A stretch of DNA of 24,564 bases from an uncultured Nitrososphaerota archaeon (GCA_964594835.1 CAZQNA010000007.1:1-24564), one strand, 5' to 3'. Shown: positions 1,229-16,858, numbered from the stretch's first letter. Program-made: numbers and translations. The notes: a model not told the origin generated them from the sequence alone.

Positions 1229-1250
1229 CGTTACGCGTAACGTAACGCTC
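1229..1250. repeat. 14-bp palindrome CGTTACGCGTAACG followed by another GTAACGCTC
   Basis: Read directly at 1229-1242; shares the GTAACG core with the element-wide motif. Confidence 0.8.
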
Positions 1251-1329
1251 GGGTCAGGGAGTCCGCCAGCCTGCCGACATCGACCAAGGCGAGCGTCACC
1301 AATCTGGTCCCAGGCCCATCTCAACGGGC

Positions 1330-1761: not shown

Positions 1762-1767
1762 TATCGG

Positions 1768-1962: not shown

Positions 1963-3590
1963 TTTCTGCCACCGGCTCCCTCCCACTTCCGCACCACCCT
2001 GTCGTAGCTGGAGCCATTGGCATTCACGTGGGCAAGGTAGCGCTGGACATCGAGAGAGCCCCACAGATTTCCCTCCGTGTCCCGCCAGAATCTAAAGCCC
2101 GCGGTCCTCAGGTGGAGCCTGTTCTTGGGTACCCTCAGCATCTCCTCGACCTTGCTCGGGGAGAGGTAGATCTGGGCCTGCCTCCCCCAGAGCTCTCTGG
2201 CCCAGGACGACACCTGAGAGATCGAGAAGTTGAAGGCCTCGTGCCCGTCTAACGGGGCCTTCAGCTTGAATATCTTGACGAAGAGGGCCATCTTGAGCGA
2301 TATCCTGTTCAGCACCATCGCCTCGGGCGGCGGAAGTTCGACCTCGAGGCGGTCCAGCTCGTCGACATCGGGCTCCCTCTGTAGAATCTGAGCCCTGGCC
2401 AGCCAGAACCTGTACCGCCTCCTGGCCTCCACGAATTCCTCTCTGAGTTCTCTCCTGGGGATCAGCTCAGCGTACATCCTGCTGAGCCTGGCGGCATCCT
2501 CGGGGCTCCTGGGTTCTGGCATCCTGAGGCTCATGGGGGGAGGCGATGTCACGAGTTCAGCGTGCCCATTCTTGGCAATGAAGATCCACTTGCCTGGGAC
2601 CATCTTCCTCATGGGGGCCACCGTGTGGATCACGGCCTCGGATATCGGGAAGTACTTGGCCAGCTCCTTCCTCTGCCTCTCCTCCTTCAGGTTCATGGGG
2701 TGCACGAAGACGGCCTGGGTGTTGTCCAGCAGGGTCTTGGGAACGCTCTGGACGTTCTGAACCTCGTAGAAGACTCGAGTCAGCGCGGTCCTCGTCTGCC
2801 TGAGCAGGGTGACGAAGTTCTCGATTCGCTCCCTGAGGTGCCACGTCGAGCCCATCGCCCCGACCCTGGGCGCGACTTCCCTCAGCTCGCGGAAGTGGAC
2901 TATGATCCTGGCGTCCTCTATGGCCTGGACGAGGTGACCCATGAGGTTGTCCAGGACCACGTTCAGGGCGAACCTGCCCAGGTCCCTGACGCTCGGCTTG
3001 AAGTAGGCGTTGCTCAGCACGGTGAACTCGTGCCTCTGAACCGTCCTGACGAGCTTATCAGGCTCCAGAGGGCTCTCGTCATCGAGGAAGCCCGAAGTTA
3101 GTAACGCAAGTAGCCTGGAGCTGACCCTCTCCCCCCGCTTCCTGAGCAGGGCCTCGATGATGTCGTCGAGCTTGGCGTCGGGGCCTCCAGCCTGGTAGTA
3201 GGCGTCGAAGAGATCCCTGGCCTCGGAGGGACTCAGGAACCCTCCCAGCGTCCTGAAGTGTCCGAAGCTCAGCATCCTGACGCTGAGAGGGGCCAGCCTG
3301 AACCTCGTGGGTATGGCCTCCATGGCCAGGGGGAAGTTGAAGGTCAGGTACTCCACGTCCCACCCTCGGGGCTCGAGACCCCTGGCCCTGAGGGTCCTGG
3401 CCTGCAACCCTCGAGCGGGCAGGTGGAGGGTCTCGTCCTCACCCTTGACGTCGATTATGAGGGGGTGCCAGCCCCTCAGGGCGAGGAGCTCCAGCACGAG
3501 CTGAGCCGTCCAGGTCTTGCTCGCTCCCCTTATGCCGATGAAGCCGATGCACGCTGTCTCCCTGGCCAGGATCTGCTCGAGGTAGCTCAT
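1959..3590 (-). CDS. Divergent HerA/FtsK/VirB4-superfamily P-loop ATPase
   Basis: GIRGASKT Walker A variant followed by IIDVKGE (HerA/TraD-like hhDxxGE); IVHFRELREVAP at the Walker B position; LRQTR...YEVQ at the Arg-finger/Q-motif positions. Confidence 0.7.
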   Translation of the reverse strand: MSYLEQILARETACIGFIGIRGASKTWTAQLVLELLALRGWHPLIIDVKGEDETLHLPARGLQARTLRARGLEPRGWDVEYLTFNFPLAMEAIPTRFRLAPLSVRMLSFGHFRTLGGFLSPSEARDLFDAYYQAGGPDAKLDDIIEALLRKRGERVSSRLLALLTSGFLDDESPLEPDKLVRTVQRHEFTVLSNAYFKPSVRDLGRFALNVVLDNLMGHLVQAIEDARIIVHFRELREVAPRVGAMGSTWHLRERIENFVTLLRQTRTALTRVFYEVQNVQSVPKTLLDNTQAVFVHPMNLKEERQRKELAKYFPISEAVIHTVAPMRKMVPGKWIFIAKNGHAELVTSPPPMSLRMPEPRSPEDAARLSRMYAELIPRRELREEFVEARRRYRFWLARAQILQREPDVDELDRLEVELPPPEAMVLNRISLKMALFVKIFKLKAPLDGHEAFNFSISQVSSWARELWGRQAQIYLSPSKVEEMLRVPKNRLHLRTAGFRFWRDTEGNLWGSLDVQRYLAHVNANGSSYDRVVRKWEGAGGRK

Positions 3591-4852
3591 CCCTCCCCGC
3601 CCTCAGATTCCTCCCCAACGCCGCCCTGTTCGAACGCTTCCATGATGTCCGTGCGCGTCAGAGACCTCGGGGGCTTCTTCTCGACGTTGGCCATGGCCTC
3701 GATGTAGACCTCAGGGTACCTCCTCATCAGCTCCGGGATCAGGACCTCAGCGGCCCTCGCCAGCGCCTGATAGGCCGCGCCGACATTGAGGTAAATCCCG
3801 TTTATGCCCAGCGTCCCCTTCGGGCTGGCCTGGGCTCCCTTCAGGATGAGGTAAGCCTCGTCCACGGTCCGTATGACTACATTCGACTCTGGGTCTCCCC
3901 TAAGTGTCCAAACCGCCAGCGGGGCCTTGGGCTCTATTCCGAGGGCCGCCAGCAGGGGGGCCAGCTCGAAGATGAAAATGGTCAGCTTGTGCTGTTCCGC
4001 GTGGTAGTTGAAGTACCGGGCCAGCACCGTGACGAGGGTCTTCCTCATGGCCTCGTTCAGCTCGATCCTGCCCCCGTAGGACCTGACCGCCTCACCGGGC
4101 TCGATCACCTTACCAGGTGGACCCATGACCAGGCCGACGTCCGTCGCTAGGATGCCGACGGTCTGCCCCTCGAGGTCGACGGTCAGGAGGCGGTCCGGGG
4201 CCTCCACTTCCGCGTAGTGAGCGGCCATCTCACCGGTTGGCCTAAGTTCAGTCCAATATTGGCTGACGTGGACGGACTCCTTCAGGTTCTCAGCGAGCCA
4301 CTTCCTGGCGTCTACCCTGTACTCGGTCCAGCCCCTGTTTCTCACTAGGTCCAGGATGATATCCCTGACCCTCGGGGGAACCTTCAGAACCTTTACCTTG
4401 CCATCTTCAACGTATTCGGGCACGATCGACTTCAGCTCCTCTATCTGAGCCTTCAGCTTGGAGTTCTCCTCCTCGCTGGACTTGAGTCTGCCCTTCAGCT
4501 CCTCTATCTCGCCCTTGAGTCTGCGGTTCTCCTCCTCGAGCTTCTTAGCCCCCTCCCGAGAGCGCCTCAACTCTCCCTCCCTCAACTCCAGCCTCTCGGT
4601 CAGCCTCCTCTTCTCGTCCATCAGATTCGTTACCTGCCTGGCGAGCCTCTCCCTCTCTTGGTCTTCCCTCGACTCCAGCGCCCTCTTCTCCGCCTTAAGC
4701 CTCAGGACCTCGTTGGTCAGCCTCTCGATCTCAGCCTTGAGTTCCCTGATTCTCTCCTCCCTCTGCTGGAGCTTCTCCCTCAGGGCCTCGATCTCCCGCC
4801 TGAGACGGGCGATCTCGATGTCTGCCCGAAAGAACTCCACCACCTTACTCAT
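3587..4852 (-). CDS. Protein with a long N-terminal coiled coil (~140 aa) and an unknown C-terminal domain
   Basis: E/K/R/L heptad pattern over residues ~10-145; start/stop overlaps with both neighbours. Confidence 0.75.
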   Translation of the reverse strand: MSKVVEFFRADIEIARLRREIEALREKLQQREERIRELKAEIERLTNEVLRLKAEKRALESREDQERERLARQVTNLMDEKRRLTERLELREGELRRSREGAKKLEEENRRLKGEIEELKGRLKSSEEENSKLKAQIEELKSIVPEYVEDGKVKVLKVPPRVRDIILDLVRNRGWTEYRVDARKWLAENLKESVHVSQYWTELRPTGEMAAHYAEVEAPDRLLTVDLEGQTVGILATDVGLVMGPPGKVIEPGEAVRSYGGRIELNEAMRKTLVTVLARYFNYHAEQHKLTIFIFELAPLLAALGIEPKAPLAVWTLRGDPESNVVIRTVDEAYLILKGAQASPKGTLGINGIYLNVGAAYQALARAAEVLIPELMRRYPEVYIEAMANVEKKPPRSLTRTDIMEAFEQGGVGEESEGGEG

Positions 4853-5564
4853 TCACTTCGGCCTCCCCGGGCGTTGGACGCCTCGTCATCTCGAGGCCAG
4901 GCCGCCCGGTCGCCTCCACCCGATCGTCGGGTGGCTTTTCGCAAACGAAGCTTGCGACCTCGTCAACCAGCCTCTCCTTGGTCTCCTCGATCGCGTGGGC
5001 GTAAACCTGCGTAATCTTGAGGCTGGAGTGCCTGGCAAGGTCCTGGACGTCCCTCGGGCTCCCTCCCCTGAGCAAGCTGAGGGTCACGAAGGTATGCCTG
5101 AGCGTGTGGCAGTGTCCGTCGGGCCTGCCTATCTGGGCCATCAGTCGCTTGACCCTGGCCTGAACCGCCCGCTTGGAAACGTGCTTGCCCGCCCTTCTGG
5201 GCGAGGGGAAGAGCCACTCGTGCCCCTCGCTTCTCTTGAGCTGTTTACGAAGGTCTCGGAGCAGGGGCTGGGGTATCGGGAGCCACGCCTCGACCCCACC
5301 CTTTCCCCTGACAAACAGCCTCTTGGCAGGCAGGTTCACCTCGTCCCTCCGAACCTTGACGGCCTCGTGGACCCTGAGACCCATGAAGAGCATGAGACCG
5401 TAGATCAGCCGCCAGGGGAGCGGTTCCTTACTAGCTAGAGACCAGAAGGCCCGGGCCTCAGACGGGCTCAGGAACCCCTTTGGCGACCACCCTCTTGAAA
5501 TTCGGGATCTTTTACCCCGAGAACTGCCACCCTGGCTAGAAACGACCCTTACCTTCTCGCCCAA
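4845..5564 (-). CDS. Short tyrosine recombinase (catalytic domain only)
   Basis: GLRVHE (R), GKGG (K), HTLRH (HxxR), ARHSS (H), TQVY (Y); only ~30 aa precede the catalytic domain. Confidence 0.9.
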   Translation of the reverse strand: MGEKVRVVSSQGGSSRGKRSRISRGWSPKGFLSPSEARAFWSLASKEPLPWRLIYGLMLFMGLRVHEAVKVRRDEVNLPAKRLFVRGKGGVEAWLPIPQPLLRDLRKQLKRSEGHEWLFPSPRRAGKHVSKRAVQARVKRLMAQIGRPDGHCHTLRHTFVTLSLLRGGSPRDVQDLARHSSLKITQVYAHAIEETKERLVDEVASFVCEKPPDDRVEATGRPGLEMTRRPTPGEAEVNE

Positions 5565-5968
5565 TAATCACCACCTCTTGAACCGATAATCGTAAAATCG
5601 AAAAAGGAAGGGAGAGATGGGAAGGCAGGCAATGCGCCCTTCGCCCCGAAGTGTGCACAGGCCTCGTCCTCCTCCTCGTCCTCGTCTTCAGGGTCCTCGG
5701 GTACTGGAGGCCCTCTGAACGGCAGCATGTCGGGGTGGTCCAGCGGGTCCTCGGGGTGCGTTACCAAGGCGCCTGGGTTGGTAACGCAGTCCTCCACCTC
5801 CCCGTCGTCGGGCTCCTCCCTGGGGTCGACCCCCTCGGGTACTAGCACCTGAGGCATAGGGGAGTAGTCCTCAGGGCTGTCAACCTCGAGGGGCAGCCAG
5901 CCCAGGGGCTCCTCGGGCTCACCATGCGTTACCAAGTCCAGGGTCGGGTTGGTAACGCTCTCCGTCAA
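5549..5968 (-). CDS. Acidic, Pro-rich hypothetical protein carrying DNA inverted repeats
   Basis: Start overlaps the upstream stop (TTGA); its VTNP..LVTH peptide repeats correspond to DNA inverted repeats. Confidence 0.5.
   Translation of the reverse strand: MTESVTNPTLDLVTHGEPEEPLGWLPLEVDSPEDYSPMPQVLVPEGVDPREEPDDGEVEDCVTNPGALVTHPEDPLDHPDMLPFRGPPVPEDPEDEDEEEDEACAHFGAKGALPAFPSLPSFFDFTIIGSRGGDYWARR
5757..5788. repeat. Inverted repeat TGCGTTACCAA-N10-TTGGTAACGCA
   Basis: Perfect 11-bp arms at 5757-5767 and 5778-5788. Confidence 0.95.
5926..5958. repeat. Inverted repeat GCGTTACCAA-N13-TTGGTAACGC
   Basis: Perfect 10-bp arms at 5926-5935 and 5949-5958, same arm sequence as 5757-5788. Confidence 0.95.
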
Positions 5969-6186
5969 CCCACCAGCACCTCCCTCAGGGCCAGCCTGAC
6001 GGCCTCCTCAACGCTCTGAGCCCTCAGCTTCAGGATCAGCTCGTAGCTCGAGCCCACCTCTGGCGTGAACCTGGCGTAGAATGCCCCATCTCGCGTGTAG
6101 AGCTTGAGCCTCCAGCCGTCGTGCCCCAGCACGGCCAGCCTCTTCGCTCCCCTCGGCAGCCTGTGGAGGTACACCACCTCAGTCAA
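5965..6186 (-). CDS. Small hypothetical protein (73 aa)
   Basis: Overlap-coupled with both neighbours; codon usage matches the element. Confidence 0.65.
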   Translation of the reverse strand: MTEVVYLHRLPRGAKRLAVLGHDGWRLKLYTRDGAFYARFTPEVGSSYELILKLRAQSVEEAVRLALREVLVG

Positions 6187-6589
6187 CAGTCATCACCTCC
6201 AGCCCGACCCTTTCCAGGGCCGGATGGCCCTCAGCCCTGAGCAGGGCCAGGACCTGCCTGCCCAGGGGAGTCAGACCGTTCCAAACGGCCTGCCTTCCGT
6301 TTGCGATCCCGATCCTCCGGCTGATCAGGCCCAGGGCGGCCAGTTCTAGGAGCCTCTGGTGGGTGTGGGTCCACGAGCCGACCCTCCTGATCACCTCCCT
6401 GGTCCAGAGGGCGCCGCCTCCCTCCTCGATCGTCGCGAGAATCCTGACTAGGCTGGGCCTGCGCCTCAGGGCCTCCAGGACTTCCGGCTCGATCCCGTCT
6501 CGGGAGGCCAGGGCCGGGTCGGGGGAGGTCCCTTCTTCAGAAAGAGGGGCGATCCCGACCCTGGCCTCTCCCGCGGGCTCAGCCATCAC
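6179..6589 (-). CDS. Winged-HTH DNA-binding protein (ArsR/MarR-like)
   Basis: RILATIEE...TREVIRRVG...RLLELAALGLISRR...LTPLGRQVL is a wHTH pattern. Confidence 0.7.
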   Translation of the reverse strand: MMAEPAGEARVGIAPLSEEGTSPDPALASRDGIEPEVLEALRRRPSLVRILATIEEGGGALWTREVIRRVGSWTHTHQRLLELAALGLISRRIGIANGRQAVWNGLTPLGRQVLALLRAEGHPALERVGLEVMTVD

Positions 6590-7995
6590 TGATCACCTCC
6601 CCTCACCTCGATGACGCCAGCCTCCTCGAGTGCCTGGAGTAGGTTGTCCCTGAGATGCCTGAGTCCCTCGGGGTCCTTAGACGGCCCCAATCTGCCCTTG
6701 AGGGTTAGAAGAGTTCTCCAAGTCGGTGGATTGACCTTCCCCTTCGAGTTGTAGGCTAGCTTCCGCAGATAGTGTCGGACATCCTTCTCGGGGTCGGGCT
6801 TGGCCTCTAAGCACCTCCTGACGTAGTCCTCGGCCTCCTCCCTCTCTACCAGCCCAATCCCAACCGCTGGCCCGAGAACCCTCCAGATGAGAGTCTGCCT
6901 GCCGTCAGCCGGGTAGATGCCTCCTAGGAGGACCTCTATGTAGCCGTAGCCCTCCAAGCTGGCCGGGTAGACGACCCTGAGCCCATCCACCTCCAGGACC
7001 CTCGACTCCACCTCCTCGACCTCAACCTCCACGCGCCTCCTCGAGGGCCGGGGCTTGGAGGCGCCTCTGACCCTCTCGAGGGCTCTCCTCCTCTCGACCC
7101 TCTCCCTGGCCCTCGTGAAGAGGTCCAGGAAGGCCTCGACGCCCCTCTCTCCGTCAAGGTAGCCCCAGTCTCCCGAGGCCCTGCCTAGGCCCTCGAGACT
7201 GTAGAGACGGCCAAAGTTCCTCTCGCAGAATGGAGGCCAGCCGAGTCTGGCGGGAACGCAGACCGTGCCAGTCTCGTGGGGGCTGTAGATTGCCCTGATC
7301 GTCCCGTTGGCTCGGTAGATTTGGTGGTCGAAGATCAGCCTGTACCCGGCCCTGGCGGCCCTCCTCTCCAGCATCCTGGCAAGCTCTGAGTAGACCGCCC
7401 AGACATCGCCAGACATCAGCGACCTGAGCCTCTCTGACCCAAGGGAGCCGAGGGCCGAGAGTTCAAGATAGCCGTGAACCCCACCATGCGTCAGGACCCA
7501 TCTAATTCGGATTCCGCGCTCCCTCAGCCACCCGTCAAGAAACCTGAGGCCTTCCCACGCCTCGAGCCTCCTGGGCTGATGCTTCCAATCAAGGTCAAGG
7601 GTGAAGTCGACGATCACGGTCTCGTCCATGTAGAGCCTGTGGAGGGTCAGGAAGAAGCAGGGGATGGTCAGGTCCATCGAGAGTCCGCTCACCACGGCCC
7701 TGAAGCGCTTGAGATCCGTGGTGACCCTGAGGCGGGAGAAGATCCCGTCAGATCTATTCCCAACTTGGAACTCCCTGAAGGTCAGGATCTCCCTCCCTTC
7801 AAGCTCCATGGGCCTCTCGACCTGCCTCCAGATCACGGAGAGCAGGTCGTCGAGCGCCAGTCTGATCCTCCTGATCCTCTCCAGCCTCTCGGCCTCGTGG
7901 TCGGGTCTCGGTACCGGCAGGTCCTGCCTGAGGATTGCCAGCTTCTCCTTGACCTCGGGCGATAGCTTCTTGATCTCCACAGCCTGTCTGCTCAT
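6586..7995 (-). CDS. Archaeo-eukaryotic primase (AEP/PriS-like) with a PriX-like C-terminal domain
   Basis: DFTLDLD (DxD motif I), THGGVH (motif II), FDHQIY...IRAIYSPHETG (motif III region); C-terminal YIEVLL...DGRQTLIWRVLGP...EEAEDYVRRC recalls PriX. Confidence 0.75.
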   Translation of the reverse strand: MSRQAVEIKKLSPEVKEKLAILRQDLPVPRPDHEAERLERIRRIRLALDDLLSVIWRQVERPMELEGREILTFREFQVGNRSDGIFSRLRVTTDLKRFRAVVSGLSMDLTIPCFFLTLHRLYMDETVIVDFTLDLDWKHQPRRLEAWEGLRFLDGWLRERGIRIRWVLTHGGVHGYLELSALGSLGSERLRSLMSGDVWAVYSELARMLERRAARAGYRLIFDHQIYRANGTIRAIYSPHETGTVCVPARLGWPPFCERNFGRLYSLEGLGRASGDWGYLDGERGVEAFLDLFTRARERVERRRALERVRGASKPRPSRRRVEVEVEEVESRVLEVDGLRVVYPASLEGYGYIEVLLGGIYPADGRQTLIWRVLGPAVGIGLVEREEAEDYVRRCLEAKPDPEKDVRHYLRKLAYNSKGKVNPPTWRTLLTLKGRLGPSKDPEGLRHLRDNLLQALEEAGVIEVRGGDQ

Positions 7996-8279
7996 CTCTC
8001 CCGCCTCCCAAAGAGCATCTCTGAGCCATCGAAGAGGATCAGCACTAGGGAGCCATCGGGCATCTTCTCCAGCCTACCAACGCCTAGGAAGGCGAGCCAG
8101 GTCTCGGATGTCTCTGCTTCGACCAAGGCCGATGTCAATTCCTCCAAGTTCTTACCAGTCGCTTTCGAGATCTCCTCGAGTGCCACGGCAAGCTCTTCAT
8201 CTCCGCCCTCGACCCACGACCACCATGCCCTGAGAGCCAGACCCTGGAGGTCGGCTTCTTCGATCGAGAGGGTCCTCAC
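7992..8279 (-). CDS. Small acidic hypothetical protein (95 aa) between helicase and primase
   Basis: GTGA/ATGA overlaps with both flanking genes. Confidence 0.65.
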   Translation of the reverse strand: MRTLSIEEADLQGLALRAWWSWVEGGDEELAVALEEISKATGKNLEELTSALVEAETSETWLAFLGVGRLEKMPDGSLVLILFDGSEMLFGRRER

Positions 8280-10447
8280 TCGCTCACCCCCCTGAGTTGG
8301 GCCTCAATCCACGCCTTTACTGCCTCCAAACCTCTCTCGTCGCTCAACTTCCTGAGTCTAGCAAAGAGAACCGCTATATCTCCCTCACTCGGCTCTTCCC
8401 CGCCTTTCAAGACTTTGAAAAACTCCCTCAGAGCCTCACGGAGATCCTCGTCTCTCCTCCAGCTTAGTCCATGCTCTCTCCAGATCCCGATTGCTCGGTT
8501 GGCCCAATGAAGCGCTCTGAAAAGCTCTCTTGAATGTGCATATGACCCCTTGTCTTCGAAGGCGCCGGAAATGTCGGAAGCGCCGGAAGTGGCGGAAGCC
8601 CTTTCTAGCGTTTCGGTCTTTTCCGACATTTTCGGCAGCTTTGGAGACAAAGATCCATCACCAACTTTGAGTGGGTCAGCCTCTTCCCTCCAAGAGCCGA
8701 GAGGCTCGATGTCCTGAATGGGCTCGGCTTCATGGAAGATCACGTGAAGTCTTCCATCCACCCGCTTCAGCTCGAGCCCGAAGAATCGCTTTAGGCGTTC
8801 GTTATGGCGATCTGGGTTGCGCCTAAGCACATCGTGAATGATCTTCGAGAAATAAAGCCCCGAGGAGGGCGTGTAGTGCCGAGAAAATGCTAGGAGATCG
8901 ATCTCAGCCCCTCTCTCAATCTTCCCTGCCCTCCTAGCGTGCTCGCACGCACTAATGATCTCTTTGAGGTAAGTAGGCAGAGCCTCGAACGTAGCCCTGA
9001 CCTGCTTCGACCACGTTTCCTCCCAAGTTGCATTAATGGCCTTCAGGCTCGCGAGAACATCGTTTAGATAGTCAAGGAGCAGGTCTTCGGCCAGCGCCAA
9101 GAGTTCGTTAACACACATCTCGCCCAGGGCTAGATCTTTGAGTTGGCGAAAGATCGCGGCTCTCAGAGCCGCGTTTCTGAGCCTCACCTGGCCCGCGGTG
9201 ACGAAATTCCCAAGGAAGTCGCTGACAAGTTCATCGTCGATCCCTTTGATTGCATCGAGCGCCAAGTCCCTCCATGCGTCCATTGGACGGTTTAGCCAAT
9301 CCCAGACCGCCGGATCAGCGTAAATAGCCTCAATCTGAGGGCGAGCTAACTCCTCGACGGCGCGCGCGATCTCGATTGCAGCCCGCCACTCAGCCCTCTC
9401 TTGTGGACTGAGCTTCCTCTTCAAGGGTTGAGCATCCTTGAAATAATAGATTAAGCCGAATCGACGGCCCAGAGATGGATTTAGTGTCAGTTTACTGATC
9501 AAATGCCCAAAGGACCTAGCACTCTCGCCCACGCCAGGGTTCGCCAGAAAGATCAGAAGCCCGCCAAACCGCACACTGAAGTTTGTGCCTCCTGTAGAAA
9601 TCCGCGCCACGCCCGTCTCGCCTAAATCAAAGAGATAGCGGGCAATCGCCCACGCAGATTGTTCGTCGATTTGATCTATAGCATAAGGAAGATCCACTCC
9701 GTCCAAGGAGCCCGGATAAATCTCCTTCCCCGATTTGGCATATCCCAAGAGTCCGTTTGCCGTAACCTTCGCGTCATGCCTCCCAGCAAGCTCGTAAAAC
9801 TCCGATTTTCCAATCCCGCTCGGTGCGGCCACGAGGGCCCAGGGCTCGGCCTGAGGGACAACCCCGCGCAGGAAGGTAGCCTCGCGTAGCCTTAGAAGCC
9901 TAGGGTCGACTCCCTCGCCTCTCTCGTTCTCCTCCCTGCTGAATCCAAAGCCGACGACCGCGTTCACGGCCTCAGCCCAGTCAAGATTACGAACGAGTTT
10001 TGGATCCTTGAGGAGCCCTACCGGGCGGTAGAGAACCTTCCCCAGGCTTTGGAGGAAGTTTAGTGCTTCCCTCCACTTATCTCTTCCCCTCTGACCCTCA
10101 TGTGAGGTCCAGCCCCAGTCTTGGGCAACTCGCACGAGAATCTGCCGAACTGCGGGATAGGCCTCACCTAACTCCTCGATCTCGGCCACATCTGGCCCAT
10201 CCAGCAATTCCAAGGCGAGGCAAAGGTCTCCAGGGCTGATCAGGTCATCACGGTCATAGATAAGGACAGGAGGCGCAGTCCTATGCACGGCACCCTTCCA
10301 CAGGCGCGCCCCAATGCCCGCTGAGGATAGGCTCGTTGAATTCAGGCCCAAGCGCGGCTCTGTGAACTCGAGTCTGACATATCCGAGTTCAACTCTTGGA
10401 TTGAGAAGTTCGCGTGCGAGTTCGCGCCACGCACGCACCTCATTCAT
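8276..10447 (-). CDS. Divergent MCM-like AAA+ helicase
   Basis: APSGIGKS Walker A, TANGLLG...PGSL helix-2 insert region, AIDQIDE Walker B variant, ANP sensor-1, LGRRF Arg finger, VRL sensor-2; next to a primase. Confidence 0.75.
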   Translation of the reverse strand: MNEVRAWRELARELLNPRVELGYVRLEFTEPRLGLNSTSLSSAGIGARLWKGAVHRTAPPVLIYDRDDLISPGDLCLALELLDGPDVAEIEELGEAYPAVRQILVRVAQDWGWTSHEGQRGRDKWREALNFLQSLGKVLYRPVGLLKDPKLVRNLDWAEAVNAVVGFGFSREENERGEGVDPRLLRLREATFLRGVVPQAEPWALVAAPSGIGKSEFYELAGRHDAKVTANGLLGYAKSGKEIYPGSLDGVDLPYAIDQIDEQSAWAIARYLFDLGETGVARISTGGTNFSVRFGGLLIFLANPGVGESARSFGHLISKLTLNPSLGRRFGLIYYFKDAQPLKRKLSPQERAEWRAAIEIARAVEELARPQIEAIYADPAVWDWLNRPMDAWRDLALDAIKGIDDELVSDFLGNFVTAGQVRLRNAALRAAIFRQLKDLALGEMCVNELLALAEDLLLDYLNDVLASLKAINATWEETWSKQVRATFEALPTYLKEIISACEHARRAGKIERGAEIDLLAFSRHYTPSSGLYFSKIIHDVLRRNPDRHNERLKRFFGLELKRVDGRLHVIFHEAEPIQDIEPLGSWREEADPLKVGDGSLSPKLPKMSEKTETLERASATSGASDISGAFEDKGSYAHSRELFRALHWANRAIGIWREHGLSWRRDEDLREALREFFKVLKGGEEPSEGDIAVLFARLRKLSDERGLEAVKAWIEAQLRGVSE
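8562..8638. repeat. Opposed 9-bp iteron-like arrays inside the MCM-like gene
   Basis: GCGCCGGAA-ATGTCGGAA-GCGCCGGAA-GTGGCGGAA (8562-8597), then inverted units; CCGGAAATGTCGGAA (8565-8579) vs TTCCGACATTTTCGG (8621-8635) is a 14/15 inverted match. Confidence 0.85.
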
Positions 10448-10675
10448 CTAGCCTCCCTCCTTGCCCTCCTCGAGGGCCTCAGCGATGAGTTGCAAAATGG
10501 CGCGCTCTATTGGCGTGAGTAGGGGATCTAGAGCCTTCAGTTCCTCCTTATTGGCAAGGAGGTTGCGTATTTTTGTTCGCGTCTCTGGGTCGTTAATGTT
10601 AAAAGCAGGGGCTTCTCCACTTCTCTTGGCCGCGGGGGAACTTCCAGAGTTGAAAATTGGCTCAGGTGGCATCAA
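10448..10675 (-). CDS. Small hypothetical protein (75 aa)
   Basis: GGAGGTG/GGGAG SD-like sequence upstream; stop directly abuts the MCM start; ends in GGAGG serving as the MCM RBS. Confidence 0.65.
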   Translation of the reverse strand: MMPPEPIFNSGSSPAAKRSGEAPAFNINDPETRTKIRNLLANKEELKALDPLLTPIERAILQLIAEALEEGKEGG

Positions 10676-10871
10676 CTCCCACCTCCGCGGCCAACCCTAG
10701 CCTTATACCTCTCCTCTCACATTCTCTCCGGACCAACTCGCGTAGAAGTTCTGATTTTGTGGCGTATCCTAGATTCTTGGCCAGCTGCTCTAAGGCCTCA
10801 TCCAGCCAAGTTGGCACCCTAACAAACCAAATCTTCACATCCTCAGCATGGCTCAGGTGGCATCAACTCCC
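10658..10871. repeat. Exact 23-bp direct repeat TGGCTCAGGTGGCATCAACTCCC (10658-10680 and 10849-10871)
   Basis: Read directly; copies are 191 bp apart. Confidence 0.95.
10662..10838 (-). CDS. Ribbon-helix-helix (CopG/MetJ-like) protein, 58 aa, absent from the ORF track
   Basis: Manual translation from GTG 10838: VKIWFVRVPTWLDEALEQLAKNLGYATKSELLRELVRRECERRGIRLGLAAEVGVDAT*; beta-strand + helix + G-x-T/S-K-S-E-L-L-R RHH signature. Confidence 0.85.
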   Translation of the reverse strand: MKIWFVRVPTWLDEALEQLAKNLGYATKSELLRELVRRECERRGIRLGLAAEVGVDAT

Positions 10872-10933
10872 GAGGGGCGCGGCCCTATAGTTGCAGAGGG
10901 CTTAGCCCCTCGCAAATATGCCCGCAAGCAGGA

Positions 10934-10947
10934 ATATTTAAGCTCTT
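10934..10947 (-). promoter_or_regulatory. BRE-TATA promoter (GAAGAGCTTAAATA) for the leftward replication operon
   Basis: Consensus-like TTAAATA with a purine-rich BRE, upstream of the RHH gene that begins a tightly coupled gene run. Confidence 0.65.
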
Positions 10948-11006
10948 CCTGGCTAGATACAACTCTGTCCAGTTACCGGAAAATAGCGAAGAGAGGGCTG
11001 AGAACC

Positions 11007-11055
11007 TGAGTAAAGTTGAGTAAGACTTACTGAGCCTTACTAAGGCAGGGTAAAG
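11007..11055. repeat. 10-bp-phased AGTAA/TTACT dyad array
   Basis: AGTAAAGTTGAGTAAG-A-CTTACTGAGCCTTACT (11009-11041, 13/16 inverted match) plus the GCCTTA-C-TAAGGC palindrome (11034-11046). Confidence 0.75.
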
Positions 11056-11108
11056 CCTAGTGAGGTTCCAAAAAGTAGGTAGAAGGGAACTGGCGATAGT
11101 GCCCACCC

Positions 11109-11558
11109 TTACTGTTCCGCCAACTTACTCACGATTCTGGATTTGAGGTTTTGTACCCCCAACCAAAACCTCCGAGCCCATGGAACTGGCAGACTCTTTC
11201 TACCCTCCTCTGTGATTGCAAAGACCCCTCTCTTGACTCTTGTGACTTTCCCCTCATTTATGAGTTCCCTGAGGAGGTCATAAGTCCAAGATCTAGAGAG
11301 ACCCAACTCCTCAGCTAGCTTATCGGCCCTCTTGGGACCCTTCGCCAACTCCTCTAGGATAGCCTCTTTGGCCTCTTCAGGTCTCCACTCTGAAGTTTCA
11401 GATGCGACGAAGAAGACCCAGGCAATTGTGAGTAGAAGGAGGATGAGATCTTCTGTGAAAAATCCAACATAGATGACTTGAAACAGCCATAAAAGAGTCA
11501 TTAAGGAGCCTTTGTGCCTGTCAAACCACTTCTCCTTTCTTCTTTCCCCATTAGGCAA
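11109..11558 (-). CDS. Membrane-anchored winged-HTH protein
   Basis: Two hydrophobic segments (residues ~19-53), then EAILEELAKGPKRADKLAEELGLSRSWTYDLLRELINEGKV...ITEEG wHTH. Confidence 0.75.
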   Translation of the reverse strand: MPNGERRKEKWFDRHKGSLMTLLWLFQVIYVGFFTEDLILLLLTIAWVFFVASETSEWRPEEAKEAILEELAKGPKRADKLAEELGLSRSWTYDLLRELINEGKVTRVKRGVFAITEEGRKSLPVPWARRFWLGVQNLKSRIVSKLAEQ

Positions 11559-11564
11559 CCCTGA

Positions 11565-11765
11565 TCACCTCTCTCCAATTATCCGCTCTACTTCAGTCTC
11601 TGGCACGACGTAGATCCCGCTGGGGAGCTTTACCGCCTTGATCTTCCCTTCCTTGATCCACCTCCAGACCGTCCTCCTGCTCACGCCCAAGATCTCAGCA
11701 ACTTGGCCGAGCTTAAGGTGCCTCTCAAACTCTGTCGACTTGGTCAACTTGAGACCACCAAGCAC
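11565..11765 (-). CDS. xis: Excisionase / MerR-like HTH_17 DNA-binding protein
   Basis: LKLGQVAEILGVSRRTVWRWIKEGKIKAVKLPSGIYVVPETEVERI; directly downstream of the integrase. Confidence 0.85.
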   Translation of the reverse strand: MLGGLKLTKSTEFERHLKLGQVAEILGVSRRTVWRWIKEGKIKAVKLPSGIYVVPETEVERIIGER

Positions 11766-11776
11766 AAATGAGACAG

Positions 11777-11830
11777 AAGGTAACAGAAAAACAAGGTTGG
11801 TAACGCTTGGTAAGAGTTGGTAACGCTCTC
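11777..11830. promoter_or_regulatory. Tandem 10-bp direct repeats TTGGTAACGC-TTGGTAAGAG-TTGGTAACGC (11797-11826) plus an in-phase AAGGTAACAG (11777-11786)
   Basis: Read directly; fills the int-xis intergenic gap; the regulatory role is inferred. Confidence 0.75.
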
Positions 11831-11831
11831 T

Positions 11832-12992
11832 CTAAGAGCCCTCGAGGAGTCTCTCCTTCACGACCTTCAAGATGGCCTCCTTTACTCTCGGGTCTGAGAG
11901 CAGGGCTAGGATCTCTTGGTCAATCGCCTCCTTTTTCTCCAGAGCCCGTCTCCTGGCCCTCTCACTGAGCGGATATCCACATCGAAGGCAGAACTCCGCG
12001 TCCCGAGGGTTCACGTAACCGCAGTTCGGGCAGGCCTCGGGCCTCAGGGGGCTCTCCTCCTCGCTGACCTCCTCGGGCTCGATTCCGTGGACCTTCCTCA
12101 GCACCGCCCGCTCCACATCCCTCCCGCTGAGGTGAACGTAGACCGCGGCCATCTTCGAGTCCGCCCCCCAGCCCGCAAAGGCCTTCAGTTCCTGCTCCGT
12201 CAGCCTCTTCGCCAGCTCGGTCAGCCTTGTGTGCCTCAGCATGTGGGGGTGGACGCTCTTCCCGAGCCCTGCCCTCTCTCCGGCCCTCCTCACTATCTGG
12301 TATAGCGCCCTCCTCGTCAGGGGGCCGCCTCCCCTCTCCACGAAGAGGGGGGCGTCGGGGTCCCCGGGCCTTGGGTGGACCTGGAGCCACGCCCTGAGGT
12401 AGGGCGCGGAGTCGTGGAGGGGAATGGTCCTGACTCCCGTCTTCCCCCTGACCCTGATCCTGAGGCCGTATTCCGTGAACTCCAGGTCTCGCATCCTCAG
12501 CGAGCACAGCTCCCCGGCCCTCAGGGCGCCCTCGTAGAGCACCGCTATGGCGGCCTTGTACATCGGGTTCCTCCCGGCCTTCACCAAAGCCCTGACCTCC
12601 TCGGGGCTGAGGACCTTGTCCCTGAGGTTGTCCACCTTGGGGGGCCTGACCCTCACCTCCTCCCACGCCTCAGGGAGCTTCCCCCCGTTCCTCCACCTCA
12701 CGAGCGCGCTCAGGCGGGCGTGGTACTGCCAGGCGGTCCTCTCGCTCCTCCCTCCCGCCTTCAGCTCCGAGAGGAACTTCCTTATCGCCTCCGAGTCGGC
12801 ATCCCAGGGCATCGTCCTGATCGTCTGCCACCAGGCCCTTGCCGCGGTCAGCATGCCCAGCTGAGACTCCTGTGAGAGCCCCCTCTCCAGAAAGTAGGAC
12901 TTCAGGGTTTTTGAGAACTCATCGGGGAGCTCCCTCAGCCCCCTCTCGATCTTCTCAGCCGCGCGGGGATCCCCGACCATCGGCTGGCCCAT
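11832..12992 (-). CDS. int: Tyrosine integrase with a C-terminal zinc ribbon
   Basis: ALRAGE, GKTG, HMLRH, AGW, AVYVH catalytic motifs; CPNC...CLRC; adjacent to xis. Confidence 0.92.
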   Translation of the reverse strand: MGQPMVGDPRAAEKIERGLRELPDEFSKTLKSYFLERGLSQESQLGMLTAARAWWQTIRTMPWDADSEAIRKFLSELKAGGRSERTAWQYHARLSALVRWRNGGKLPEAWEEVRVRPPKVDNLRDKVLSPEEVRALVKAGRNPMYKAAIAVLYEGALRAGELCSLRMRDLEFTEYGLRIRVRGKTGVRTIPLHDSAPYLRAWLQVHPRPGDPDAPLFVERGGGPLTRRALYQIVRRAGERAGLGKSVHPHMLRHTRLTELAKRLTEQELKAFAGWGADSKMAAVYVHLSGRDVERAVLRKVHGIEPEEVSEEESPLRPEACPNCGYVNPRDAEFCLRCGYPLSERARRRALEKKEAIDQEILALLSDPRVKEAILKVVKERLLEGS

Positions 12993-13049
12993 GTGACACT
13001 CCCTTAAAAGGGTGGTGGTAACGTAAACATTCGGTGGCTATTAAGGTTT

Positions 13050-13895
13050 TTACGCTCCCGAACGCCCACGCATCCTGAACAGCTTCTCATACTCCCTCTT
13101 GAGGTGCCTGGTGCTCACGTGCGTGTAGATCTGGGTCGTGCTCAGGCTGGCGTGCCCAAGAAGCTCCTGGATCGCCCTTATGTCCGCTCCGGCCTCCAGC
13201 AGGTGGGTCGCCAGAGAGTGCCTCAGGGTGTGGGGCGTGACCCTCTTCTGGATGCCAGCCCTCTCCGCCGCGGCCTTCACGATCCTCTGGACCGTCCTGG
13301 GGCTGACGTCGAAGACCCTCCCGTTGGAGTTCCCAGAGCTCTCCCTCAGCGCCCTGAGCTCGCCGGCCGTCTCCGGGTCTATCAGGACCACGCGATCCTT
13401 CCCGCCCTTCCCGCTCCTGACGAGGATGACTCCGTCCTTCAGGTTAACCCGGTCCCACGTGAGCTCGCAGAGCTCGCCCACCCTCATCCCGGTCACGTAG
13501 AGCGTCCTGAGGAGCAGGCGGGAGCGGTCGTCCCCCGCGGCCTCTATGAGCCTCTCCACCTCCTCCCGGGTGAGGACCGAGGGCAGGGCCCGCCTGACGC
13601 GAGGCCTCTCCACCTCGACGGGGTTCTGCTCGACGAAGTGCCTCTGCTCCATGAACCTGTAGAACGTCCTCAGGGACGCTATGCGCCTCAGGAGGGTCCT
13701 GTCCGCGAGGCCCCTGGACCTCCTCAGGTGGGTCAGGTACCTCCAGATGTCGTCCGGTGTCGCCTCGGCGGCGTCCCTGCCGAGCCACCGCAGGAACCGC
13801 CTCACATCGTAGGAGTACTGGCGGATCGTGCCCGGCCTGTAGCCCTTCACCTCCATCCAGGTGATGAACTCGTCGAGGTAGCCCTCGCTGTCCAT
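13050..13895 (-). CDS. xerA: Tyrosine recombinase XerA (XerC/D-like); likely start ATG 13895
   Basis: SAM-like N-domain, GMRVGE, GKGGKDR, TPHTLRHSLATHLLEAGADIRAIQELLGHASLSTTQIYTHV; a TTTTAA box lies ~26-31 nt upstream of ATG 13895. Confidence 0.9.
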   Translation of the reverse strand: MDSEGYLDEFITWMEVKGYRPGTIRQYSYDVRRFLRWLGRDAAEATPDDIWRYLTHLRRSRGLADRTLLRRIASLRTFYRFMEQRHFVEQNPVEVERPRVRRALPSVLTREEVERLIEAAGDDRSRLLLRTLYVTGMRVGELCELTWDRVNLKDGVILVRSGKGGKDRVVLIDPETAGELRALRESSGNSNGRVFDVSPRTVQRIVKAAAERAGIQKRVTPHTLRHSLATHLLEAGADIRAIQELLGHASLSTTQIYTHVSTRHLKREYEKLFRMRGRSGA

Positions 13896-13978
13896 GCTCT
13901 CGATTTCTGGCGTAGGCAAGTTAAAATGGGTTCAGGAGACTTTGGATGCGCTGACTAAGTGATATCATCATTCGGTCG

Positions 13979-16858
13979 GTGAGGATAATGAGGCTTCACC
14001 CCTTCACCTCCATGCGCCCCCTCCTATCGCTCGGCCTGGTCGCTCTGGCGGCTCTACCGGCCGGACTGTCCGCGGCGGCCCAGCCGGCGGTTCAGGCCGC
14101 CCAGCCCGAGCCCGTCAAGGTCGTCTGGAACGCAACCCTGGGCTACTTCCCCGCCACCCTGAGGCTTCCGTCCCCTGTGGCAACTAGCGTCGGCTTCGTC
14201 TGCGTCTACCCAGACCTCGGGTCCGTCTCCCTCATCAACCCGACCACCTTCTCGCCCTCGTGGACGTTCAGGGTGGAGTCGACCCCCTCACAGATAGTCG
14301 TCGGAGGGGGCTCGGTCTACGTCCTCACCCAGTGGGGCAGGCTCTACGGGATCAACCTGCTCGACGGGACGGTGGTCTTCGACTCGAAGGGGATCCAGAT
14401 AGACGGCGCCGACGGGTCCGTCAGGCCGGCCTACGCCTCCGGGGTGATAGCCGTCTCCACCGGGAGGGGGGTGGTCGGCCTGGACGCCGCCACCGGGAAG
14501 GAGAAGTGGAGGACCGGGACGCCCGGGGAGGTCCTTCTCCTGCTCAGCGGCGGGGGGAGGGTGATCGTAGGTCACAGCTCGGGCGTGTCCGCCATCGATC
14601 CGGTCACGGGGGCTTCGATCTGGAACGCAACCCTGGGAGCGCCCGTGAGGGCCGCGGCGATAGTGGGGTCCTCCGTCTACGCTGTCACGGACGGGGGGAC
14701 CCTGGGGGAGATAGACGCCGCCACCGGGAGGGTTACGAGGAGCCTCAAGCTCCCGACCCCGGACCCAGCCCCTGGAGAGATCCCGTCGGGCCCTGACATT
14801 CTCTACGTTGTCACGAGGAGGGGGAGGATCTACCCGGTGGGCGTGAGGAGCTTCAGGCGGCTGGACATAGTCTACCTGGAGCAGAGCCCCGTGGCACAGC
14901 CCGAGGTCTCCAACTACCTCATGATACTCTGGACCCTTCAGGGGGTACTGCTGGGCGTGCCCGCCGTCCCGTCTCCAGTGGACGTGGTCTTCTCCCACCG
15001 GGTCTGGGCCAGGTTCGCCTCGGGGGTGGGGTACGACCCCGTGTCCCAGGTCGCCATGTTCTACCTCTCGGACGGCAGCCTGGTAGCCCTCGAGGTCCCG
15101 CTGTACACGGTCCGCGTCCTGGAGTACAGCCTGGAGGAGGGCAGGCTCACGGCCGACCTTCAGCTGTGCGCGTTTCCGGGGTCCGAGGGGCAGGTCACCC
15201 TGACCGCGAAGGACGAGTTGGGCAGGCAGCTCCTCTCCGATCGACTCTCCGTCTACGGAGGGGGGTGCTTCCTCAGGTCGGTGAACTTCGACGTGGGATC
15301 CTCCAAGAGCGTCGAGTTCACCCTGACGGGGCTCGGCCTCCAGAGCCCGCCGACCGTCGTGGCCCTAGCCGCCCAGGTCCAGCCAAAGCCGCCCGAGCAG
15401 CCCGGCATGGTGATCGCCGCCCCGCCCACCCTCGTCGTGGGGGAGTCCGCTGAGCTATCGATAGCTGTGACCAACGGGTGGAGGGACGGGCTGGCGTACG
15501 TCTCGATAGACTGCGAGGACCTCGAGAAGGTGAAGTCCGAGGAGGGGTACGTGGCCGTCGGGGCGTCGAGGATGTTCACGGTGGAGGTCGTCCCTAGGAG
15601 GCCTGGGGAACTGCGCTGCCGCGCGTCCTTGGTGATCGAGTCCGAGGTCGTGCACTCGGCTGACTTCACCCTGAGGGTGGAGAGGGGCTCTATAATCGAG
15701 GGGTCACCCCAGGCGTCCCCGCAGAGCGTGAGGGAGGGCGGGAGGTTCAGGGTGAGGGTCAAGCTCGTCAACAGGTACGAGGAGGGGGCCACCTTCACGG
15801 TCGACGTTAGCGGCCCGGGAGTCGTGGGCGAGGCCGTCCAGGTGGGCCCCCTGGCCGCCGGGGAGGAGAAGGAGGTCTCCGTTTCCGCCAGGGCCTCGGG
15901 GGCTGGATCCAAGGATCTGACCGTGACCGTCTCGGTGGGGAGCGCTCTCGTGGACTCCATGACGCTGCCTGGGGCCGTGACCGTCGTCGCCCCCCAGCCG
16001 ACCACGCCCCCGCCCGCCACCTCGCCGAGTCCGGGCGCGGGGTTGATCTCCAAGATACCGGAGCCCGTCCTCGACTACCTGCCCTACCTCATCGCGGCGC
16101 TGGTCGCCGGGGGCGTCGCGACCATCCTGCGCAGGAGGGGAGGCCCCACCCCGCCGGAGAGGAGGCTGCCCCGCCCGCCCCCAAGCAGGCCCAGGCTCTC
16201 AGAGATCCGCGAGGTCCCCACGCCCCGGGTTGAAGCTGAGGAGAGGGTGAGGCCCGCCGAGGAGATCGTCCCGAGGGTCAGGCCTCCCAGGCCGGAGGAG
16301 GTCGAGAGGGTGGAGAGGCCCAGGGAGGAGGTGGCTCCAGCCGCGGCGCCCGCTCCTGCCCCACCCCCAGCTCCAGCCCCAACCCCAACCCCGGCCCCGC
16401 CGGTGAGCGCCGAGGAGCTGTCGTCCACCATATCAGAGCTCAGGGAGTCTCTAAAGAGGGTGGTGTCCCAGGCCAGGGAGCTCGAGGGTGAGGGGCTGGT
16501 GGGCGTGGACGAGAGGGCCTCCGTGGTCGACAGAAGGCTGGCCAGGGCCGAGGTGCTGATCGACATCGGGGACCTGGAAGAGGCCCAGAAGGTCGTCAGG
16601 GAGGTCGAGGAGACCGTCAGGACCCTCGAGAACACGGTCAAGCAGTTCAGGGAGATACTGCTCGGCAAGGTTTGGTCGAACGTGGAGAAGAGGATAGCGA
16701 CGATGCTCAGGGTCTGGGGCAGGGCCCCGGCGTCGATGCTGACGATGATCCCGTCGGAGCTCAGGGTGGCGGCGCTGGCCAGGTTCGTGAAGCTGCACCC
16801 GGAGATGAAGCTGGAGCTGAGGGGAGACGAGCTCTACTCCCTGGAGGAGGGGGCCTGA
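13979..16858 (+). CDS. Secreted, membrane-anchored protein: PQQ/BamB-like beta-propeller, Ig/CARDB-like domains, TM helix, Pro-rich linker and cytoplasmic helical domain
   Basis: Signal-peptide-like N-terminus; repeated (L/I)DAATG..W blade motifs; beta-rich middle; PTTPPP linker; YLPYLIAALVAGGVATILRRR TM + stop-transfer; coiled-coil C-terminus. Exact start uncertain (13979/13988/14012). Confidence 0.8.
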   Translation: MRIMRLHPFTSMRPLLSLGLVALAALPAGLSAAAQPAVQAAQPEPVKVVWNATLGYFPATLRLPSPVATSVGFVCVYPDLGSVSLINPTTFSPSWTFRVESTPSQIVVGGGSVYVLTQWGRLYGINLLDGTVVFDSKGIQIDGADGSVRPAYASGVIAVSTGRGVVGLDAATGKEKWRTGTPGEVLLLLSGGGRVIVGHSSGVSAIDPVTGASIWNATLGAPVRAAAIVGSSVYAVTDGGTLGEIDAATGRVTRSLKLPTPDPAPGEIPSGPDILYVVTRRGRIYPVGVRSFRRLDIVYLEQSPVAQPEVSNYLMILWTLQGVLLGVPAVPSPVDVVFSHRVWARFASGVGYDPVSQVAMFYLSDGSLVALEVPLYTVRVLEYSLEEGRLTADLQLCAFPGSEGQVTLTAKDELGRQLLSDRLSVYGGGCFLRSVNFDVGSSKSVEFTLTGLGLQSPPTVVALAAQVQPKPPEQPGMVIAAPPTLVVGESAELSIAVTNGWRDGLAYVSIDCEDLEKVKSEEGYVAVGASRMFTVEVVPRRPGELRCRASLVIESEVVHSADFTLRVERGSIIEGSPQASPQSVREGGRFRVRVKLVNRYEEGATFTVDVSGPGVVGEAVQVGPLAAGEEKEVSVSARASGAGSKDLTVTVSVGSALVDSMTLPGAVTVVAPQPTTPPPATSPSPGAGLISKIPEPVLDYLPYLIAALVAGGVATILRRRGGPTPPERRLPRPPPSRPRLSEIREVPTPRVEAEERVRPAEEIVPRVRPPRPEEVERVERPREEVAPAAAPAPAPPPAPAPTPTPAPPVSAEELSSTISELRESLKRVVSQARELEGEGLVGVDERASVVDRRLARAEVLIDIGDLEEAQKVVREVEETVRTLENTVKQFREILLGKVWSNVEKRIATMLRVWGRAPASMLTMIPSELRVAALARFVKLHPEMKLELRGDELYSLEEGA

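Follow-up and report, generated by a model that had tools for sequence, protein, structure and literature searches.

Short private words that are scattered over a replicon as direct and inverted repeats, and that link replication, partition and maintenance control, are known from RK2, with KorA and KorB, and from pSM19035, with omega. Cox, Apl and TorI are small bacterial recombination directionality factors (RDFs) and regulators which likewise act on networks of sites at several loci. On head-to-tail direct repeats, BldC is described to assemble into multimers whose number varies (PMC5859096), Gp36 of D29 is described as a MerR-like repressor acting on GC-rich direct repeats (PMC12266134), and some RDFs are stated to double as transcription regulators (PMC5861418); the SNJ2 paper contrasts simple SSV-type integrases with the two accessory proteins of SNJ2. 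A limited literature search for archaeal excisionases, which does not exclude published cases, found no archaeal dual-function RDF. Here, we describe a stretch of 24,564 nucleotides from an uncultured Nitrososphaerota archaeon (GCA_964594835.1, contig CAZQNA010000007.1; the window), in which an integrated element of about 11.9 kb (positions ~1148-13039) carries the 10-mer TTGGTAACGC, referred to below as the word, both as abutting direct repeats and as inverted pairs. Judging from its distribution and setting, the word most probably serves as the binding site of a small DNA-binding protein that the element itself encodes.

Among the closest known systems are BldC, mycobacteriophage Xis and D29 Gp36. 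The element encodes a 66-residue protein, Xis66, of the same domain family and fold, and head-to-tail repeats about one turn apart and of variable number stand next to its gene. The element differs from these systems in its archaeal host, in that the word is found in inverted pairs too (with 4-, 10- and 13-nt spacers) and within coding sequence, and in that the Xis66 site is a predicted one. As with the dual-function RDFs P2 Cox, 186 Apl, KplE1 TorI and Pf4 XisF4, a small xis-type protein is encoded beside the integrase, repeats lie at the putative early promoter and further sites are found elsewhere, but the strong sites are outside the arms of the attachment (att) site, and, starting from the junction, int comes first and xis second. 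The short private word, dispersed over the replicon in both arrangements, recalls RK2 KorA/KorB and pSM19035 omega, whereas the protein folds differ and no ParA-type partner was recognised on the element. RepE of F (PMC13028717) also uses one word as direct and inverted repeats at several loci, one of them directly following the gene for the binder, and, as with iteron initiators, a winged helix-turn-helix (wHTH) gene, o136b, belongs to the replication module. The units here are, however, abutting 10-mers instead of iterons of about 20 bp, an adjacent AT-rich unwinding element is missing, and o136b encodes a single MarR/PadR-like wHTH instead of the WH1-WH2 arrangement.

This kind of control circuit is familiar in bacteria and would be found here in an unstudied group of elements. 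The original prediction, made from the sequence alone, had called the locus the best candidate for an undescribed system, which is too strong, since regulators of mobile elements that act on operators at several loci are well known from bacteria. New are the archaeal setting, the use of one word as abutting direct repeats and as inverted pairs of variable spacer, its embedding in coding DNA, the hint of a private word for every element of the family, and its record in clustered regularly interspaced short palindromic repeat (CRISPR) arrays.

Distribution and geometry of the word

The source genome assembly (G000, 1.82 Mb), in which the window lies on contig C7 and whose contigs C2, C3, C5 and C8 are mentioned below, holds eight exact copies of TTGGTAACGC. 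Six of them lie in the window, all on the 11.9-kb element (P ~7e-15), at 5758-5767(-), 5778-5787(+), 5926-5935(-), 5949-5958(+), 11797-11806(+) and 11817-11826(+). Off the element, one copy lies within an ATP-binding cassette (ABC) transporter gene (C2) and one within a CRISPR spacer (C8), and the reversed word, used as a control, has no exact match genome-wide. Allowing up to one mismatch, the window contains 10 matches against 0.32 expected, a count reached in none of 100 shuffles, and 4 of the 24 one-mismatch copies of the genome fall in the element, where about 0.13 are expected (P ~1e-5). The core GTAACG, which is rare in the GC-rich genome and concentrated in the element, is observed there 13 times against 0.63 expected, and 9 of the 31 genome copies of GTAACGC are on the element. 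The placement of six of the eight exact copies and the excess of the core mark the word as element-specific.

Two exact copies belong to a tandem array (11777-11826, (+) strand) in the 66-bp gap between the stop of the integrase gene int386 (11832) and the start of xis66 (11765). The copies at 11797, 11807 and 11817, the middle one being the variant TTGGTAAGAG (11807-11816), abut head-to-tail at an exact spacing of 10 bp, and a partial copy (11777-11786), matching at 6 of 10 positions, stands two turns away from the main array. The repeats lie 32-62 nt upstream of the xis66 start codon and immediately upstream of a T-rich TATA-like stretch, and the sequence suggests a promoter at this position.

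The remaining exact copies form two inverted pairs, 168 bp apart, inside acid139 (5549-5968, (-) strand), an acidic low-complexity open reading frame (ORF), at a local GC content of 0.63-0.64. Pair 1 (5757-5788) consists of two 10-mers with a 10-nt spacer, and pair 2 (5925-5959), which covers codons 4-14 of acid139, of two 10-mers with a 13-nt spacer, placing the half-site centres 20 and 23 bp apart. When the arms of pair 1 are read as 11-12 bp, its spacer becomes 8 nt and that of pair 2 becomes 11 nt, and the two spacers are dissimilar. As RNA, the pairs can fold into hairpins of -19.5 and -16.8 kcal/mol; the tandem array shows no RNA structure (z -0.32), and an Rfam scan of E values up to 0.1 gave no match.

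Weaker copies are enriched as a class, each single one being uncertain. One-mismatch copies are found at 1632-1641(-) inside nov143, at 3098-3107(+) inside atp543, at 2737-2746(+) and at 1293-1302(-), where the window reads TTGGTGACGC. The copy in nov143 is ambiguous in status: the nov143 homologue in genome G009 has a near-identical sequence at the equivalent position and no word network. The copy at 1293-1302 is part of an intergenic cluster at the left end (1229-1302), together with three GTAACG cores at 1229-1250 that include a 14-nt palindrome. A two-mismatch copy (13015-13024, (+) strand) lies just upstream of the TATA-like box of int386, in a block of about 30 bp (13011-13039) between the att core and this box. 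Its sequence includes GGTAAC and GGTGGC/GGTAGC, and a role in integrase binding or as a promoter element is likely. Because this block is shared with a sister element on contig C3 (L009 14339-14370, 24 of 32 positions), the 13015 copy may be a different class of site, belonging to the int promoter or an att arm.

On direct reading, the sites named by the original prediction are present: the tandem copies between int and xis (11797, the 11807 variant, 11817 and the partial copy at 11777), the inverted pairs at 5757-5788 and 5926-5958 upstream of the second recombinase, and the variants at 1631-1641 and 3098-3107 (one mismatch each), 1229-1250 (GTAACG cores) and 13015-13024 (two mismatches). The copies at 1293-1302 and 2737-2746 were absent from its list. 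It had also noticed no copies in the host part of the window, and 13050-24564 indeed holds none at up to one mismatch, with two at two mismatches (13150 and 23811); the motif comparison of genome and element that it had proposed is given by the counts above.

Where the word falls into genes, codon usage suggests that it is selected as DNA. The 3098 copy encodes the residues LALLTS with TTA-CTA, two rare codons that account for 2.0% and 7.8% of leucine codons on the element, while the atp543 homologues of the C3 sister element and of G009 encode the same residues with common codons and without the word. The copies in both pairs are written in acid139 with TTG-GTA. As acid139 differs from a metagenome relative (L072) by an in-frame 6-nt indel and has a 49% identical homologue on C3, it is a real, poorly constrained gene; the C3 homologue is degenerate at the word positions. 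A meaning of the encoded VTN and LVTH peptides at the protein level was considered and rejected, the C3 homologue being without them and the word standing in other reading frames in genome G008.

Over 1723 columns, L072 has 89% identity; none of the four copies is lost, both pairs are identical, and they stand 168 bp apart as in the window. The conserved pairs lie, however, within blocks of about 100% identity. Such blocks alternate in the comparison with patches of 62-75% identity (5500-5650 and 6250-6460), of which the one in o136b shows mostly synonymous changes, and this mosaic points to recombination among diverged lineages. The exact pair pattern occurs in 46 metagenome, 22 genome and 1 viral stretches of public collections, and only 1 of these 69, L072, is related to window 1-13100 by blastn and tblastx, the others being chance matches in unrelated bacteria. 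Within the 40 genomes of the class, the exact inverted-pair pattern is present in G000 alone. The host phylum comprises only 43 species genomes, which our phylum-wide searches covered; a relaxed pair pattern matched in G000, G005, G008 and G016, and the matches in G016 and on G008 contig C177 look like chance. On G005 contig C5 (2964-2985; L138), a palindrome of a variant half-site with a 4-nt spacer lies between convergent genes and is nearly the same as a palindrome in a CRISPR spacer of G000. Searches of IMG/VR with wh149 and atp723 found no relatives, and a search with an o136b alignment gave one weak match, 45% over 40 residues.

The congeneric genomes G005 to G008 have one to three exact copies each, and their counts at up to one mismatch do not exceed the reversed control, except for a cluster on G008 contig C121. 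This contig, from the same genus, has three word copies together with homologues of atp723 (61%) and o136b (73%): a compact inverted pair with a 4-nt spacer covers codons 3-10 of the o136b homologue, and the third copy is found at the stop codon. G008 contigs C72 and C88 hold single host copies. On G005 contig C41, two one-mismatch copies lie downstream of its int gene; the contig ends 2.2 kb further on, and only int matches proteins of the element.

The host has CRISPR arrays on C8 (28818-45039 and 52568-55194) with 203 and 34 repeats of a 37-nt unit and 234 spacers. Three of the 234 spacers contain the word at up to one mismatch, against about 0.11 expected (P ~2e-4). In one of the spacers, which matches 1257-1302 at 36 of 46 positions, the exact word stands in the place of the window's TTGGTGACGC, and another one contains a compact inverted pair of a variant half-site. 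A further spacer matches the xerA gene (13225-13267) at 36 of 43 positions, and its probable source is a gene like xerA on a foreign element or in a foreign strain.

The sister element (C3:124500-136380; L009 2500-14380) is related through int (76% identical), atp543 (78%) and nov143 (67%), and it also has relatives of o73a and acid139. It is without xis66, wh149, o136b and rec239 and has no copy of TTGGTAACGC. It has a word of its own, GTTGGACA, which occurs eight times within 460 bp in the 3' part of a PrimPol-wHTH (primase-polymerase) replication gene, a cluster that looks like an origin within an initiator gene. The slot of rec239 is taken in the sister element by a serine resolvase gene (PF00239, 2.6e-49), the replication protein is a fusion of 1023 residues, and a 991-residue N6-methylase/Eco57I-like gene is found at the far side. 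Another related element, in G038 (L030; G038:C6, 3688-15524; int 54%, atp723 35%, pp469 24% identical), contains 18 GGATCC-centred sites over 12 kb, with three of these grouped in 70 bp at a distance of about 300 bp downstream of int, whereas the 6.6 kb of flanking DNA is free of them; the whole 1.8-Mb G038 genome has 331 matches to the flanked GGATCC pattern. These cases hint that each element of the family has a private word.

Candidate readers of the word

The original prediction proposed that one element protein (Xis, an integrase or a wHTH) reads a dispersed network of sites and coordinates recombination, transcription or partition. The network part is supported: the word is element-specific and strongly non-random, is in part written into coding sequence through rare codons, and turns up again in related elements as well as in CRISPR spacers, all of which fits sites read by an element-encoded protein. 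The reading that we favour, tentatively, is that Xis66 recognises TTGGTAACGC and autoregulates an operon of xis and replication genes. The xis66 gene (11565-11765, (-) strand) is the first of the leftward string, and its product matches PF12728 with 51.2 bits (cut-off 27) and the TIGR01764 family "excise" with 35.8 bits (cut-off 28.8). Among PDB sequences, Xis66 is most similar to Pukovnik Xis, RacA and BldC, and the predicted structure (66 residues, predicted local distance difference test [pLDDT] score 82.5) has BldC, RacA and Pukovnik Xis as top Foldseek hits, BldC with a template modelling (TM) score of 0.86-0.90 on the target and a root mean square deviation of 0.9-1.3 A. The assignment of Xis to the MerR-like proteins thereby holds: Xis66 is one of the minimal wHTH proteins of MerR-like type, of which those with solved structures bind short repeats. 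According to the model, it has a wHTH fold without the coiled coil or the effector domain of classical MerR proteins. Units that abut at 10 bp would leave room only for a small monomeric domain, and their position immediately 5' of xis66 fits the binding mode of BldC.

On this reading, the array would be the operator of the main operon (xis66, wh149, atp723, pp469, o136b, acid139, rec239, cc421 and atp543), extending from just upstream of the T-rich TATA-like box, a weak one, almost to the start of the xis66 message, which is probably leaderless. Xis66 would polymerise head-to-tail with one protomer per 10 bp, and cooperative binding would set the level of the operon. Weaker copies are found near both element ends (1229-1302 and 13015), with the strong array 1.2 kb from the core; as an RDF of the dual-function type of Cox, Apl and TorI, Xis66 might bind these end copies, bend the att arms and assist excision by Int386. 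Some 6 kb further downstream, the inverted pairs could be a second binding locus, acting as a roadblock, a loop anchor or an accessory site for rec239. They would lie just before an apparent internal promoter of rec239, namely the AT-rich hypervariable stretch 5585-5610.

Several observations weigh against Xis66. The inverted pairs, with spacers of 10 and 13 nt (4 nt in G008), differ from the known arrangement of BldC and Xis sites, and the pairs of L072 sit in blocks of about 100% identity, where conservation alone is no proof of constraint. In G008 it is the o136b homologue that is flanked by the word, and a search of that genome gave no xis66 orthologue, only a best match of 43% in a 205-residue frame; this absence is weak evidence, because the contig starts inside atp723 and the assembly is in 230 contigs. 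Upstream of two other stand-alone xis-like genes of the phylum (L036 and L040), no tandem repeats were found, and four close Xis66 homologues (70-72% identical) come without an assigned DNA context. The 13015 copy is in the block shared with the C3 element, which has no xis66, and, as the left end may be anywhere in 1148-1340, the sites at 1229-1302 might belong to a neighbouring toxin-antitoxin (TA) islet.

The second candidate is o136b (6179-6589, (-) strand), a gene directly after the replication genes that encodes a MarR/PadR-like wHTH. Dimers of o136b might bind the inverted pairs downstream of their own gene, as an incC-like, ori-like or handcuffing locus, together with the direct repeats at the promoter of their own operon, which we consider possible but doubtful. 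MarR/PadR regulators are dimers that bind palindromes, and the model of o136b (pLDDT 76.9) appears to have a MarR/PadR-like fold with the flanking helices typical of dimers (Foldseek E 1e-4, TM ~0.5), whereas at the sequence level no Pfam family is reached at cut-off, the best being wHTH families below threshold. The gene accompanies the word in all three contexts (window, L072 and G008), with an invariant recognition-helix stretch, and the 73% identical homologue on G008 contig C121 has the inverted pair at its first codons and a third copy at its stop. That pair lies, however, inside the translated region, behind a Shine-Dalgarno-like stretch and not at a promoter, and the window's o136b gene has no palindrome at its start, unlike the homologue. 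In the sister element, a wHTH is fused into the PrimPol replication protein, and the word cluster follows about 220 bp downstream of the wHTH part, compared with about 290 bp in the window; yet GTTGGACA is absent from the operon promoter of the sister element. RepE (PMC13028717) provides a precedent with direct repeats in oriS and incC and an inverted-repeat operator. Geometry speaks against o136b at both loci: abutting head-to-tail repeats of 10 bp are not bound by two-fold symmetric MarR/PadR dimers, and the distances between the half-site centres of the pairs are large for a compact dimer. As for an origin, the region 10676-11108 is a better candidate than the pairs, and reading the pairs as the origin, without an AT-rich flank, was rejected as a first choice.

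A composite of Xis66 and o136b, in which one word has two wHTH readers, seems improbable. Here, a Xis/BldC-like monomer would bind the direct repeats and a MarR/PadR-like dimer or the membrane-anchored wh149 the inverted pairs, forming a switch that couples excision, the replication operon and the recombinase/ATPase module. The private word of each element (TTGGTAACGC, GTTGGACA and the GGATCC-centred one in G038) would then be an incompatibility or identity code that is sampled by the host CRISPR system.

An unlikely role for the pairs is that of a resolution or inversion site of rec239 (4845-5564, (-) strand), with one pair as crossover core, the other as accessory site, and the direct repeats as further recombinase motifs with a regulatory role. 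TnpI and the internal resolution site of Tn4430/Tn5401 are a comparable arrangement. The rec239 protein is a short tyrosine recombinase consisting of the catalytic domain only (PF00589, 8.8e-25), aligning with XerA/XerC from their residue ~108 on, and its gene starts 185 bp downstream of pair 1. The prediction had counted two tyrosine recombinases; the window has three: rec239, int386 (11832-12992) and the host xerA (13050-13919). The serine resolvase in the same slot of the sister element suggests, as a non-orthologous replacement, a resolution function, the 8-nt spacer of pair 1 with longer arms would suit a core site, and one contig of run X4 breaks at 5770, inside pair 1. The spacers of 10, 13 and 4 nt are, however, unlike each other, so that the two pairs cannot exchange strands, and abutting 10-bp repeats would be too tight for a 27-kDa catalytic domain per unit. 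G008 contig C121 has the word but no rec239 homologue, and the contigs of four sequencing runs, in which rare forms are dropped, contain mosaic relatives but no inversion or deletion joint from pair to pair.

Least likely of all, the copies would be lambda-type arm sites of Int386, sites of wh149 (an element-specific protein, matched in 5 of the 43 genomes, with non-self matches at most 47% identical) or of another element protein, or the pairs would be RNA hairpins and the tandem copies unrelated: the GGTAAC block beside the int start is conserved between both G000 elements and the pairs are foldable, but the array is 1.2 kb and the pairs are about 7 kb from the att core (13040-13049), whereas lambda arm sites are about 100-150 bp from theirs, the 76% identical sister integrase has no word network, the array has no RNA structure, the Rfam scan gave no match, and one 10-11-mer in direct and inverted arrangement argues for a single DNA reader. 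The arm-type sites invoked by the original prediction are therefore not upheld.

Borders and gene content of the element

The right end of the element is defined and the left end lies within 1148-1340. Its GC content is 0.50-0.64, compared with 0.65-0.70 in the host, a heat-loving archaeon with a reverse gyrase gene at 16834-20184. A copy of the att core, AAACCTTAAT (13040-13049, (-) strand), abuts the stop codon (13050-13052) of the host gene xerA, whose product scores above the NCBIfam equivalog cut-off. The congeners G005 and G006 (XerA 92% identical) have empty sites composed of the xerA stop, AAACCTTTAAT and an oxidoreductase gene, and the identity of the window with these sites stops at 13040-13049. 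In G000, the oxidoreductase flank is found at C8:101070, the last 55 nt of C8 overlap with the start of C7, and a second core copy, AAACCTTTAAT, stands at the far-left junction on C8. The flank and the overlap show that the island extends from C8:101071 to window position 13039, with a core copy at both junctions.

In run X5, one contig has 818 linked to 13051 through 529 other letters, which implies that a RelE/ParE-type TA islet (1 to ~1147) can adjoin xerA without the 12-kb part. As the islet is separable, the element proper runs from about 1148/1340 to 13039. Situated between the element and the far-left att copy, the islet includes, at 497-1147, a RelE/ParE-type toxin gene (758-1147) and an overlapping upstream ORF (497-832), and a paralogous pair, 70-75% identical, is found on C5:62637-63164.

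No tRNA target was found in the window or in L009/L010. The 32-nt block next to int has no second copy at up to nine mismatches apart from the sister element, whose ends share no repeat of at least 13 nt. The contigs of the four runs, with rare forms dropped, also contain no circular junction. Integrases of the int386 family are located directly 3' of protein genes (in G036 and G038 a TFS/RpoM-like gene with a zinc ribbon, in this genome xerA), and they use very short cores instead of tRNA genes (L016/L017 of G038/G036, and L013).

All genes of the element are read leftward, mostly with overlaps of a few bases, in the order int386, xis66, wh149, a non-coding region of about 430 bp, atp723, pp469, o136b, o73a, acid139, rec239, cc421, atp543 and nov143. 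The int386 gene (11832-12992, (-) strand) encodes an integrase with a C-terminal zinc ribbon and has homologues in 13 of the 43 phylum genomes. Residues 49-264 of Int386 align with residues 22-230 of XerA, and no separate arm-binding domain was recognised. The wh149 gene (11109-11558, (-) strand) encodes a wHTH behind two hydrophobic stretches, with a TrmB-type helix-turn-helix match at 3e-6. The hydrophobic stretches, judged by eye from the sequence, are at about residues 17-35 and 38-53; wh149 would be a membrane-anchored DNA-binding protein with its wHTH on the cytoplasmic side.

The replication module (6586-10447, (-) strand), assigned by sequence reading, comprises atp723, with a P-loop, o95, and pp469, with primase-polymerase-like motifs. 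Homologues of the module are found in G038 (35% for atp723 and 24% for pp469) and in G008 (61% for atp723), and its proteins have no Pfam matches. The cc421 protein is a coiled-coil protein and atp543 a P-loop protein.

The apparently non-coding region 10676-11108 upstream of atp723 has a GC content of 0.45-0.56 and is a candidate replication origin or regulatory RNA. Its repeats include a direct one of 22 nt (10660-10682 and 10850-10872) and a GAGTAA/CTTACT cluster (11005-11045). At 8550-8650, atp723 contains in its 3' part an imperfect inverted repeat of 39 nt (77% complementary) and CGGAAG-type repeats. The sequence CCACTTCCGC has three copies in the genome, all on the element (1984, 2890 and 4205).

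Implications for archaeal integrative elements

How archaeal integrative elements are controlled has hardly been charted, and very few cases are known of accessory factors that work with archaeal integrases. The locus described here offers a compact and testable candidate circuit, composed of a 66-residue Xis/BldC-type protein, a MarR/PadR-like protein and clearly defined sites, and it comes with natural controls, a sister element in the same genome that has a different word and relatives that have the same word. If Xis66 is the binder, it would be an archaeal counterpart of the bacterial proteins that are both RDF and regulator. A private word for each element, if true, would bear on immunity and on incompatibility between co-resident elements, and would furthermore provide a simple sequence signature for finding such elements.

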